Source: Marmoricola sp.
GTDB lineage: Bacteria; Actinomycetota; Actinomycetes; Propionibacteriales; Nocardioidaceae
DNA length: 64,000 nucleotides
Direction: 5' to 3'
Assembly: GCA_025965195.1 (NCBI GenBank)
Contig: JAOPXK010000112.1
Span: 6-64,005 of the forward strand
A program made the translations under genes and the position numbers. The stretch's first letter is position 1, and each line of letters starts with the position of its first letter. This document shows, in pieces, positions 59,790-63,104 of the stretch. The notes beneath the pieces were generated by a model, which had not been told where the DNA came from, ran no database searches, and saw nothing but the letters and a program-made list of their open reading frames with translations.

Positions 59790-60953
59790 ATGGGCAACCC
59801 GGTCATCGTCGACGCCGTCCGCACTCCCCTCGGCAAGCGGGGTGGCTGGTTGGCCGGCGTACATCCTGCCGAGCTGCTCGGTTTCGCCCAGAAGACGGTC
59901 CTCGAGCGGGCGGGCATCGACCCGGCACTCGTCGAACAGGTCATCGGCGGTTGCGTCACGCAGGCCGGTGAGCAGTCCAACGGCATGGTTCGTCGGGCCT
60001 GGCTGCACGCCGGACTCCCCCAGCACACCGCTGGCACCTCGATCGACGCCCAGTGCGGCTCCGGCCAGCAGGCGGCCCATCTGGTCAACGACATGGTCCG
60101 CGCGGGCACCATCAACGTCGGCATCGCCTGCGGCGTCGAGTCGATGAGCCGGGTGCCCCTCGGCGCGAACGTCCCTCCCGGCACCGGAGACCCCCGGCCG
60201 GACTCGTGGGACATCGACCTTCCGGACCAGTTCACCGCGGCCGACCGGATCGCCGCCAACCGCGGGCTCAGCCGCGAAGACCTCGACGCGTTCGGCCTTG
60301 CCTCACAGCAGAAAGCCCGCGTCGCCGTCAACGAGGGCCGCTTCAAGCGCGAGATCGCACCGCTCTCCGCAGCCCAGGTCGACAAGGAGCGCAAGCTCAC
60401 CGGCGAGACCCTCGTGGTCGACTCCGACCAGGGCCTGCGGGACACGACGCTCGAGGGGCTGGCCGCACTCAGGACGGTCCGGCCCGACGGCCTGCACACG
60501 GCCGGCACGTCGTCGCAGATCACCGACGGGGCATCCGCCGTACTCATCATGGACTCCGACCTCGCGGCCTCGCTCGGCCTGAAGCCACGTGCCCGGATCG
60601 TGCAGCAGTGCCTGGTCGGATCCGACCCGTACTACCACCTCGACGGTCCGATCGACGCGACGCAGCGGCTGCTCGACCGGAGTGGCATGTCGATCTCCGA
60701 CTTCGACCTGTTCGAGGTCAACGAGGCGTTCGCTGCCGTCGTCCTGTCCTGGGCACAGCAGCACAAGGTCGACATGGACAAGGTGAACGTCAACGGCGGC
60801 GCGATCGCCCTCGGGCACCCGGTCGGCTCGACGGGCACCCGGCTGATCACGACGGCGCTGCACGAGCTCGAGCGTCGGGATGCGTCGACTGCGCTGATCT
60901 CGATGTGCGCCGGCGGCGCGATGGCGACAGGCACCATCATCGAACGCATCTAG
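59790..60953 (+). CDS. fadA5: steroid 3-ketoacyl-CoA thiolase
   Basis: [34 protein letters not shown] and SMCAGG; divergent from cyp125. Confidence 0.9.
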
Positions 60954-60956
60954 AGC

Positions 60957-61004
60957 CGAATTCCCACGGTATGTAGGTTTCCTTCGTCTCCCTGAGGTGT
61001 GCAG
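60957..61004 (+). repeat. left terminal inverted repeat
   Basis: CGAATTCCCACGGTATGTAGGTTTCCTTCGTCTCCCTGAGGTGTGCAG is the exact reverse complement of 62148-62195; imperfect extension to 61033. Confidence 0.95.
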
Positions 61005-61172
61005 CAGTCAGAATGACGAAGGATCCATTGGGATGTCCGAGGTCGTTGGGCGCATCCACGGGGTCCCGATCTGGCCACCCCAATCGTCCACAGCCACTCG
61101 CGCGTGACGGTTCTCCACCTATCCGGCTCAGACCGTTGGTAGGACGACCGCACAGTGCGATCTTTCCGGTCC

Positions 61173-62108
61173 ATGGATGAACTCATCGAGCTCGTTAGCC
61201 AGTCCGGCGTACTCCTCCGAAGGGAAGCCTTGGCGAACGGCTTCACCGACCAGGACCTTTCTAGGGGGCTCCGGCACGGGCTGCTGCGGCGCGTCCGCCA
61301 CGGCGCGTACACGACTCCCGAACACTGGGACCACGCTTCGGCAACAGAACGACATCGCCTCAGGTGCATCGCTGTTGATCGATCGCTGAAAGGTCAAGTG
61401 GTGTTCACCCACACGTCGGCTCTGGTGATGCACGGCGTCGCCATCTGGGGCGCATCGCTCGACCGCGTACACGTGACGAGGCTCGACGGCATCGGACGCA
61501 CGGATGCAGGCGTTGTCCATCACGAAGGGCGCGTTGCGGAGGCTGAGACGACCACTGCCGGAGGACTCCTTGTCACAACCCCGGGGCGGGCGGTCGTCGA
61601 GCACGCCTCGTTGACCTCCGTCGAGTCGGGCCTCGTGTCGGCGGACTCCGCGCTCCGACGTAACGACCTCGACTTCGATCAACTCGCACGTCAGTTCATG
61701 TCGATGGAGCACTGGCCAGGCACGCGCAGGGTCCACATCGTGGTACGTCTTGCAGACGGTCGTGCCGAGTCAGCTGGAGAGACACGGTCGCGCTACCTCT
61801 GTTGGCGGCATCACCTACCCGCGCCGGAGCTCCAGTTCGAGGTGTATGACGAGTTCGGGCTCGTCGGCGTGACAGACATGGCGTGGCCGGAGCGAAAGCT
61901 CCTCGGGGAGTTCGACGGCAAGATCAAGTACGGTCGCCTCCTCAAACCCGGACAGGAACCGGGCGACGTCGTCTTCGCAGAGAAGCGCCGTGAGGACCGC
62001 CTGCGCGAGATCACTGGGTGGCAGATGGTTCGGCTGGTCTGGTCAGACCTCGAAGATGCCGCCTACACCGCGAGCCGGATCAGGCGCATGCTCTTCCGCG
62101 CGGCCTGA
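61173..62108 (+). CDS. AbiEi-antitoxin-like wHTH + C-terminal PD-(D/E)xK (DUF559/Vsr-like) domain protein
   Basis: N-terminal GVLLRREALANG...LLRRVRHGAY; FTHTSALVMHG; AESAGETRSR, PELQFEV, TDMAWPERKLLGEFDG and GWQMVRLVWSDL; alternative GTG start at 61155. Confidence 0.8.
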   Translation: MDELIELVSQSGVLLRREALANGFTDQDLSRGLRHGLLRRVRHGAYTTPEHWDHASATERHRLRCIAVDRSLKGQVVFTHTSALVMHGVAIWGASLDRVHVTRLDGIGRTDAGVVHHEGRVAEAETTTAGGLLVTTPGRAVVEHASLTSVESGLVSADSALRRNDLDFDQLARQFMSMEHWPGTRRVHIVVRLADGRAESAGETRSRYLCWRHHLPAPELQFEVYDEFGLVGVTDMAWPERKLLGEFDGKIKYGRLLKPGQEPGDVVFAEKRREDRLREITGWQMVRLVWSDLEDAAYTASRIRRMLFRAA

Positions 62109-62147
62109 TCGCCGTACTTCCCAATGAATCCTGATGCGTCCCGAGTT

Positions 62148-62195
62148 CTGCACACCTCAGGGAGACGAAGGAAACCTACATACCGTGGGAATTCG
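62148..62195 (-). repeat. right terminal inverted repeat
   Basis: Exact reverse complement of 60957-61004; imperfect extension inward to 62119. Confidence 0.95.
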
Positions 62196-62198
62196 ACC

Positions 62199-63104
62199 CT
62201 AGGCACCGTAGACGGGCTCGGGAGGGGTGCCCTCGGCGATCAGGTCGCGAAGCGCACTACCGACCTCGGCGGTCTCCCAGCGACGGCCGATGTCCTTCTT
62301 GGGACCGTGCCGCCAGCCTTCCTCGACGCAGATCTGGCCACCCTCGATCTCGATGACGCGACCGGTCACGTCGCCGGCCTCTTCGGAGGCGAGCCACGCC
62401 ACGATCGGCGAGTTGTTCGCCGGGTCCATCGCGTCGAAACCGCCTTCGACGCCCGCCATCATCTCGGGGAATGCGCCTTCGGTCATCCGGGTCCGGGCCA
62501 CCGGGGCGATCGCATTGACCGTCACGCCGTACCTCCCCATCTCGGCCGCCGCAACGATCGTCATGCCGGCGATCCCGGCCTTGGCAGCGGAGTACGTCGT
62601 CTGCCCGATCGAGCCCTGCATGCCGGCGCCCGACGAGGTGTTGATGACCCGGGCGACCCGTTGCCGGCCTTCCTTGGACTCGGCACGCCAGTAGGCGCCC
62701 GCGTGCCGCAGGGGTGCGAAGTGGCCCTTGAGGTGGACGCGGATCACGGCATCCCACTCCTCCTCGGCAGTGTTCACCAGCATCCGGTCGCGCAGGAAGC
62801 CGGCGTTGTTCACCAGGATGTCGAGGCCGCCGAACGTGTCGATCGCCTGCCGCACCATCGCGGCCGCCTGCTCGAAGTCGGCGACGTCCGCACCGTTGGC
62901 GACGGCGTGCCCACCCAACTCCTTGATCAGTGCGACCACTTCGTGGGCCGGCCCCTCGGAGGAACCCTGGCCGTCGGCGGTCACGCCGAAGTCGTTCACC
63001 ACGACCTTCGCGCCCTGCCGCGCCAGCTCGAGCGCGTGCTCACGCCCAATGCCGCGGCCCGCGCCGGTCACGATCGCGATGCGTCCTTCGAGGATCCGGG
63101 TCAC
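62199..63104 (-). CDS. SDR oxidoreductase (Rv3548c-like, steroid C/D-ring cluster)
   Basis: TGAGRGIG, VVVNDFG, NNAGFLRDRM and YSAAKAG; start taken at GTG (VTRILEG). Confidence 0.88.
   Translation of the reverse strand: MTRILEGRIAIVTGAGRGIGREHALELARQGAKVVVNDFGVTADGQGSSEGPAHEVVALIKELGGHAVANGADVADFEQAAAMVRQAIDTFGGLDILVNNAGFLRDRMLVNTAEEEWDAVIRVHLKGHFAPLRHAGAYWRAESKEGRQRVARVINTSSGAGMQGSIGQTTYSAAKAGIAGMTIVAAAEMGRYGVTVNAIAPVARTRMTEGAFPEMMAGVEGGFDAMDPANNSPIVAWLASEEAGDVTGRVIEIEGGQICVEEGWRHGPKKDIGRRWETAEVGSALRDLIAEGTPPEPVYGA

Follow-up and report, generated by a model that had tools for sequence, protein, structure and literature searches.

In proteobacteria, palindromic repeats and a partner enzyme gene make up the REPIN/REP-RAYT systems (REPtrons; PMC3116915, PMC3337134, PMC5581495), and inverted repeats are also bound by AbiEi proteins (PMC7319586, PMC3985639). 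The insert analysed here, from Marmoricola sp. (assembly GCA_025965195.1), has traits of both. It occupies positions 60954-62202 of a 64,000-nt stretch of contig JAOPXK010000112.1 (the window, to which all coordinates refer) and consists of one gene, called the cargo gene below, between two inverted repeat units, the arms. It belongs to a large family of such repeat-plus-enzyme systems in Actinomycetota. On balance, we favour the view that the encoded protein is the agent that maintains or spreads its repeats, in a REPIN/RAYT-like partnership built on a winged helix-turn-helix (wHTH) nuclease. The fuller proposal is put forward more tentatively, with somewhat less than even confidence: an undescribed class of mobile DNA, in which the wHTH-nuclease would recognise box-hairpin-box repeats and drive their spread into spacers between convergent stop codons via host repair, as a REPIN/RAYT counterpart of independent origin. 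A literature search returned no description of the gene-repeat pairing; the sole trace was a table row with DUF559 among predicted inversion targets (PMC9881135).

Insertion was demonstrated by comparison with empty sites. The window corresponds to contig C194 of a draft genome (G000; 3.97 Mb in 200 contigs, 98% complete) whose relatives are Nocardioides and Marmoricola. Excision of 60954-62202 in silico leaves ...ATCTAGGCACC..., and the joined flanks were queried against 103 genomes of the genus. The genes on either side of the insert, which encode a thiolase (left) and a short-chain dehydrogenase (SDR; right), were directly adjacent in seven of them. The two of the seven with the highest DNA identity, G125 (...GAGCGGTACTAGGACCC...; thiolase C-terminus ...GTIIERY, SDR C-terminus ...PEPVYGS) and G069 (...CGGATCTAGCTCGC...; thiolase C-terminus ...GTIIERI, SDR C-terminus ...PEPVYGAS), have both stop codons overlapping in one CTAG; the remaining five junctions have spacers of 10-64 nt and a thiolase stop TGA. 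Relative to the single-CTAG state, the window contains about 1,249 extra bases, corresponding to the repeat-bounded unit and a second CTAG (insert of 1,245-1,249 bp). An earlier interpretation of the window, made from its letters alone (the sequence-only reading), had held that removal of the insert would rebuild two overlapping stops in one CTAG and had pointed to close relatives as the place to look for such an empty thiolase-SDR junction; G125 and G069 display precisely this state. The thiolase-SDR spacers of the relatives G030 and G064 (loci L024/L026; 52-64 nt) contain GC-rich hairpins, GCGGTCTC...GAGACCGC and GGTCGACGTAC...GTACGTCGACC, which look like ordinary terminators and not like units of the family.

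A second case was found in the same genome. The element on contig C39 is missing at the same site in six relatives compared, and colinear flanks without it were indicated in many more by genome search. Its insertion boundaries are the outer ends of its repeats, and it starts directly at the TGA of its left neighbour. The arm-gene-arm unit was inserted whole at these two independent sites. An exact look-up of the cargo protein returned only three metagenome contigs, all with the element at the same site. Within the species, no polymorphic empty site came to light, and an exact-protein look-up of the thiolase was likewise without a record.

The association of gene and repeats extends through the family. 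Eighty loci were surveyed from named genomes, which include Nocardioides, Marmoricola, Propionibacteriaceae, Jiangellaceae and Phytoactinopolyspora, and 73 of them had complete flanks. Bracketing repeats of 15-96 bp, spanning 1096-1307 bp, were detected in 57 of these 73 homologs (78%), and in 8 of 11 homologs from genus relatives. When the same criteria were applied to 300 random windows of G000, five (1.7%) scored, two of which were family elements themselves. Among 61 relatives subjected to a whole-element search, the arm sequence was seen only in G000, G021 and G031, all of which hold a gene framed by it.

Several such systems coexist within G000, where tblastn with the window protein identified seven paralogs. 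Those at C184:13660-14921, C120:38726-39882 and C39:1611-2752 are bracketed by long inverted repeats, each unlike that of the window, which brings the number of bracketed genes in this genome to four. Repeats of these three types are dispersed over 31 (C184), 20 (C120) and 14 (C39) loci, their own two arms counted, and 12-29 sites of each type are gene-less. The paralogs at C90:8437-9713 and C58:78137-79348 carry a dispersed repeat on both flanks (11 other loci for C90, only 2 for C58), and the one at C88:17239-18287 on one flank only (12 loci). At least four separate gene-plus-own-repeat systems are present in G000, and probably six or seven. Every gene has repeats of its own family around it and not those of another, which provides an internal control against chance placement; the repeat families have only words of 8-9 nt in common. 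Gene-repeat pairing is thus both family-wide and lineage-specific.

From its outer to its inner edge, each arm consists of a box, a hairpin and the box again in inverted orientation. A pair of palindromic box-hairpin-box units describes the repeats better than do simple terminal inverted repeats of a transposon. The gene-less C184-type copies, which form the most abundant family in G000, are symmetric box-hairpin-box palindromes of about 94 nt, and the arms that flank the C184 gene equal such a gene-less unit with a degraded inner box. Many lineages share the terminal box TT(C/A)CC(A/C)(A/C)GG(T/G)ATG(C/T)AG or palindromic doublets such as TTTCACTGGTTAACCAGTGAAA. The sequence-only reading had suggested a search with the 48-bp repeat of the window as a way to trace the element. 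Copies of its box type occur in G021, G031 and metagenomes, and G000 itself yielded a single extra copy of this repeat type, gene-less, 122 bp long and without CTAG flanks, on contig C101. A metagenome scan for the window's box type gave at least 120 stretches, almost all of them without the gene. The 80 that were read comprised 15 short paired units (88, 111 and 166-192 bp) and 65 single boxes, and included one full-length gene-bearing copy. An 88-nt unit folds into a near-perfect hairpin (-33 kcal/mol, z -10).

The length of the unit at one insertion site differs between strains (166 bp at L189:2209-2374, 111 bp at L216:802-912 and 163 bp at L019:1880-2042), and units are therefore subject to internal deletion in situ. 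Separately, a 546-bp inverted repeat with 92% identity lies beside a solo box copy in locus L018 (1895-2432 / 3557-4101; contig C5 of G031); it may consist of two inverted copies of some larger repeat or insertion sequence (IS).

In the window, a perfect 48-bp inverted repeat (60957-61004 / 62148-62195) lengthens to 90-nt arms (60950-61039 / 62113-62202) with 84% complementarity. The left repeat unit (60954..61039, plus strand), defined by repeat search and sequence, has a DNA fold z of -2.3 and contains the outer box GAATTCCCACGGTATGTAGG (60958-60977), which is conserved across lineages, the internal hairpin (60980-60995 / 61008-61023) and the inverted inner box CCATTGGGA (61025-61033). The right unit (62113..62198, minus strand), identified in the same way, is its inverted copy, with the inner box TTCCCAATG at 62118-62126 and the outer box CCTACATACCGTGGGAATTC at 62175-62194. 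The only credible gene between the arms is the cargo gene (61173..62108, plus strand; 311 aa), for which an alternative GTG start exists at 61155. Its upstream region within the element (61040..61172, plus strand) contained no sigma-70-like promoter; a consensus scan of the element for promoters and terminators was empty, no U-tracts were seen, and Rfam gave no match.

The left CTAG (60950..60953), one copy of the duplicated tetranucleotide that is single at the empty sites, holds the stop of the thiolase gene (59790..60953, plus strand; Pfam Thiolase_N, E 1e-57, and Thiolase_C, E 4e-41; stop TAG at 60951-60953). The right CTAG (62199..62202), recognised as the second copy by empty-site comparison, holds the stop, read on the minus strand, of the convergent SDR gene (62199..63245, minus strand; Pfam adh_short, E 2e-43). 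The C-termini ...GTIIERI of the thiolase and ...PEPVYGA of the SDR agree with relatives; the SDR start codon is uncertain, the public gene call in L136 being 301 aa. The main structural claims of the sequence-only reading held throughout: a perfect 48-bp repeat with an imperfect extension, a CTAG at both ends that contains the thiolase and SDR stops, a single cargo gene, and no DDE, HUH or recombinase gene in the insert, as judged by open reading frame (ORF) list, Pfam and NCBIfam. Directly upstream of the thiolase gene lies a cytochrome P450-like ORF (58377-59612, minus strand), which fits a sterol/lipid catabolic cluster of the kind that the putative fadA5 label, given to the thiolase gene in the sequence-only reading, would imply.

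Both CTAGs lie four nucleotides outward of the GAATTC of the terminal box and three nucleotides outward of the perfect 48-bp repeat. CTAG is about ten-fold depleted in G000 (1176 observed, about 11972 expected from base composition), so the paired CTAGs at mirror positions are not due to chance. The footprint itself is ambiguous because CTAG is palindromic: it fits a 4-bp duplication with ends RGYC-GAATTC... and equally a TA duplication with terminal G...C. The proposal of CTAG/YTAR targeting with a 4-bp duplication fits the window footprint and is not supported as a rule, since CTAG flanks were absent from all of about 25 other copies of the window's repeat subfamily (in G021, G031 and metagenomes), and no excess of duplications was seen among 85 elements. 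Neither CTAG nor TA flanks recur at other copies, and a target rule of this kind was rejected for the family.

These data also bear on the explanation that the insert is a non-autonomous cassette, the ends of which are recognised by a transposase encoded elsewhere (of IS5, IS630, IS701 or RAYT/IS200-like type), with the AbiEi-nuclease gene as a passenger. A palindromic CTAG on either side, as seen at the insert, is also generated by some IS5 and IS630 elements, and gene-less copies resembling miniature inverted-repeat transposable elements (MITEs) exist. An IS with the same GAATTCCCA... termini was sought in G000 as the trans partner, and the only end match was the 122-bp gene-less copy; an autonomous IS with these ends, suspected in the sequence-only reading, was not found in this 98%-complete genome, although an IS may have stayed unassembled in a draft of 200 contigs. 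The lack of CTAG or TA flanks at other copies and of a family-wide duplication is at odds with a cassette of this kind. So are the at least four divergent gene lineages in one genome, each with a different repeat family, and the framing of 78% of homologs, neither of which would be expected for a passenger. Mobilisation in trans by an IS, the first of two options offered by the sequence-only reading, is thereby disfavoured, and we consider it improbable.

The cargo protein was assigned by profile and fold searches. Pfam recognised AbiEi_4 only (residues 3-47), and the AbiEi models of PADLOC matched residues 8-185 (E 8.5e-16). The C-terminal domain had no sequence match in Pfam (E up to 10), NCBIfam or the PDB (phmmer and profile), and PHROGs returned no match for the protein. 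A 38-sequence alignment was used as input for an AlphaFold (AF2) model, which was confident (predicted local distance difference test score, pLDDT, 92; predicted template modelling score, pTM, 0.87). In Foldseek searches, the N-terminal two-thirds of the model matched AbiEi (6y8q, E 3e-6) and Rv2827c (1zel), and the C-terminal ~110 residues matched Vsr (1cw0, probability 0.99; 1vsr, 0.96) and the catalytic domain of I-Bth0305I, a homing endonuclease (3r3p, probability 0.99, template modelling score 0.69 normalised to 3r3p). The predicted layout is thus a two-domain AbiEi-type wHTH module (residues 1 to ~190) followed by a Vsr/DUF559-type PD-(D/E)xK-like fold (~200-311). Residues D235, E246, D248, K252 and E270-K-x-R-E-D275 are invariant in the alignment, and these acidic and lysine positions fit an active nuclease. 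The catalytic motif has K in place of the H that is usual in the DUF559 consensus of Pfam.

The identity of the nuclease domain rests on the fold search and on distant paralogs, because direct sequence searches were empty. Neither the window protein nor any of its 38 close homologs matched Pfam DUF559 (PF04480) above the gathering score. The cut-off of 20.6 bits was exceeded by the distant G000 paralogs on C120 (22.3 bits) and C130 (33.3 bits), whose link with the window protein comes from tblastn (E 1e-5 to 1e-11). As distant paralogs reach DUF559 and close homologs do not, the window protein is placed in a diverged branch of the AbiEi_4 + DUF559-type superfamily. Of the wHTH + DUF559/Vsr-like cargo proposed at first sight, the AbiEi wHTH stood and the structure prediction for 61173-62108 recovered a Vsr-type nuclease fold; the match to the DUF559 model itself did not materialise. 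No AbiEii partner (DUF1814 nucleotidyltransferase) lies beside the gene, whose neighbours encode the thiolase and the SDR. The cargo gene and all seven paralogs rank in the bottom 0.1-11% of called host genes in codon adaptation, and the GC content at third codon positions (GC3) of these eight family genes is 0.69-0.86, compared with 0.85-0.90 for the neighbouring thiolase and SDR genes. Poor codon adaptation fits a selfish gene of low expression.

The reconstructed empty site (60948-60953 joined to 62203-62207; ATCTAGGCACC) contains CTAGG and so fits CTWGG. E. coli Vsr nicks 5' of the T within CTWGG. In view of the Vsr-like fold of the encoded nuclease, this agreement may be more than coincidence, yet it is a single case.

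Two further explanations start from the nature of the protein: programmed inversion of the gene segment, and a free-standing homing endonuclease that is copied into empty alleles by repair. The nuclease fold resembles that of a known homing endonuclease (I-Bth0305I). Under homing a single conserved target would be expected, yet family members occupy many unrelated spacers, and gene-less units far outnumber genes. DUF559 proteins are enriched among predicted inversion targets (PMC9881135); flipping a whole gene between convergent neighbours would change nothing obvious, and no invertase is encoded nearby. This pair of explanations appears very improbable.

Genomic placement was assessed with flanking genes called by a codon-usage model trained on G000 and checked on four known cases; these calls are not a curated annotation, and the model was used in place of two GC3-based gene callers that had misassigned known neighbours. 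Of the 59 full-length elements with both neighbours called, 41 (69%) are flanked by a convergent pair of genes and one by a divergent pair. A median of about 8 nt (left) or 12 nt (right) separates the element end from the stop codon of the neighbouring gene. Among gene-less units of G000, 22 of 43 (51%) are in convergent and two in divergent positions. In a crude gene map of G000 that served as background, 17.9% of gene pairs are convergent, with a median gap of 48 nt, which corresponds to an enrichment with p = 5e-18 for full-length elements and p = 8e-7 for gene-less units. Full-length and gene-less units both prefer very short spacers between convergent stop codons. Where relatives carry a unit, G000 has an empty spacer of about 17-40 nt between the two convergent stops; these spacers were too diverged for exact footprints of gene-less units to be defined. 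The suggestion that insertion at stop codons spares host genes is thereby generalised, to insertion into the few nucleotides between convergent stops.

One orthologous convergent spacer was found to be occupied by different units in different species. It holds a gene-less GAATTCCCAAGG-type unit in two species (L016:2030-2150 and L015), a full-length GGTTTCCCAAGGG-type element in two others (L076:2334-3520 and L088:2325-3525) and a C120-type unit in G000 (contig C117, ~34547-34668). Three unit types in one place mean either that a hot spot received independent insertions more than once or that units decayed and were replaced in situ; spacers of this kind are evidently in repeated use.

Placement of this kind invites an explanation in which the repeats serve the host as bidirectional terminators, insulators or operators, and the protein, as a single-chain AbiE-like module, is a regulator or a nuclease of repair or defence for which they are binding sites; the gene-bearing composite would then reach new sites only through horizontal transfer or ordinary recombination. 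The units form strong symmetric hairpins and lie in near-empty convergent spacers, a position that calls for terminators, although they lack U-tracts. AbiEi proteins are autoregulators that bind inverted repeats (PMC7319586), yet operators would not be expected at both ends of a gene, with a fixed geometry of 1.1-1.3 kb in 78% of homologs. The persistence of a G031-type element at an orthologous locus in at least five species, and the single full-length copy per subfamily and genome, accord with a host function. The clean insertion of the whole arm-gene-arm unit at two independent sites, the three unit families in one orthologous spacer, the invariant nuclease residues and the atypically poor codon usage do not. 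We regard a purely host-serving role as unlikely.

For the reading that we favour, in which the protein maintains or spreads its repeats, the following route can be envisaged. A dimer of the protein would bind the conserved TTCCCA(A/C)GG(T)ATG boxes through its wHTH, by analogy with AbiEi on inverted repeats, and the nuclease would cut at or beside the units. Host repair or replication might then copy or move the cut units and occasionally also the gene-bearing composite. In the window, a staggered break at CTAG followed by fill-in could have produced the CTAG duplication. The second option of the sequence-only reading, a little-recognised selfish class whose wHTH binds the repeats, agrees with the bracketing of 78% of homologs, the conserved terminal box and the gene-less copies, with binding as its predicted component.

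Several observations weigh against this reading. Binding, cutting and movement by the cargo protein are all steps that we infer, and no strand-transfer activity is known for a PD-(D/E)xK-type nuclease alone. The CTAG duplication of the window is a single case and could equally be a TA duplication or a captured fragment; across 85 elements, flanking direct repeats of at least 4 nt were seen in three, with 5.1 expected from mismatched flanks. The co-occurrence count of arm and gene among the 61 relatives is weak, as the search scored only a small number of candidates in each genome and G021 may be closely related to G031, and physical linkage alone makes gene and repeats co-inherit. Recent activity is not evident from the one gene-less window-type copy in G000 and the identical site in the three metagenome contigs. 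In at least five species (L002/L056, L155, L003, L005, L006, L157), the full-length element of G031 type has the same genes on either side. Its inverted repeats have diverged or can no longer be detected in some of these species (L003, L005), a pattern that suggests that the element has long been inherited, mostly vertically, while its arms decayed. Taken with the shared site in the metagenome contigs, this locus indicates that movement is rare and that descent is mostly vertical.

The window is an unusually clean test case, in which the empty site is exact, the 20-nt box is defined and the gene is intact. What it newly contributes is the exact empty-site footprint, a quantified preference for convergent stops, an internal control from multiple systems in one genome and a negative result on target duplication. 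If the proposal is true, it would explain the origin of many gene-end hairpin repeats in high-GC Gram-positive genomes, assign a function to a very large family whose members now go by the annotation of orphan AbiEi antitoxin or DUF559 protein, and reveal a further way for bacterial DNA to move, by a nuclease together with host repair. The units may double as bidirectional terminators and are then relevant to the annotation of actinobacterial operons.

Comparison with known systems shows partial likeness to each. The N-terminal 185 residues are AbiEi by profile and fold, as in AbiE type IV toxin-antitoxin systems (PMC3985639, PMC7319586), but the gene has no AbiEii operon partner, is fused to a nuclease and is accompanied by repeats at both of its ends and elsewhere in the genome. 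With the Vsr-like EDxHD homing endonucleases (I-Bth0305I, 3r3p; Vsr, 1cw0 and 1vsr) the protein shares the nuclease fold, and its gene likewise behaves as selfish DNA; unlike them, it lies outside introns and inteins, has no single recurrent target site, carries a fused AbiEi module and is framed by repeats that also exist without the gene. Inverted repeats at the ends, one gene between them, short derivatives that lack the gene and, at the junctions of the insert, a duplicated palindromic tetranucleotide recall ISs and MITEs (IS5 and IS630 types, with CTAG or TA targets). In contrast to these, no DDE, DEDD, serine, tyrosine or HUH transposase and no constant target duplication is present, each subfamily has one full-length copy, and the ends are box-hairpin-box structures of which single units disperse alone. 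As each of these assignments fails on a defining feature that was tested, the insert belongs neither to the IS/MITE elements nor to the homing endonucleases or AbiE systems.

The REPIN/RAYT systems offer the most extensive parallels. There, as here, a usually single-copy enzyme gene lies between inverted copies of a palindromic repeat (57 of 73 homologs in the present family), and the repeat is dispersed as gene-less hairpin or doublet units that are extragenic and found mostly at the 3' ends of genes. Several distinct pairs of gene and cognate repeat can occur per genome, and inheritance is for the most part vertical, some loci being shared between species. The enzyme of REPIN/RAYT systems is an HUH/Y1 (IS200/IS605-like) transposase, whereas that of the insert is an AbiEi wHTH joined to a Vsr/DUF559-type nuclease; Pfam, NCBIfam, PADLOC and the fold search detected no HUH/Y1 transposase in the insert. 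The hosts are Actinomycetota, copy numbers are in the tens and not the hundreds, and the gene-bearing composite itself has been seen as an insertion. Because its enzyme is not an HUH transposase, the insert is not a member of the REPIN/RAYT systems; if the nuclease acts on its repeats, the family would represent a second, independently evolved repeat-enzyme partnership beside them.

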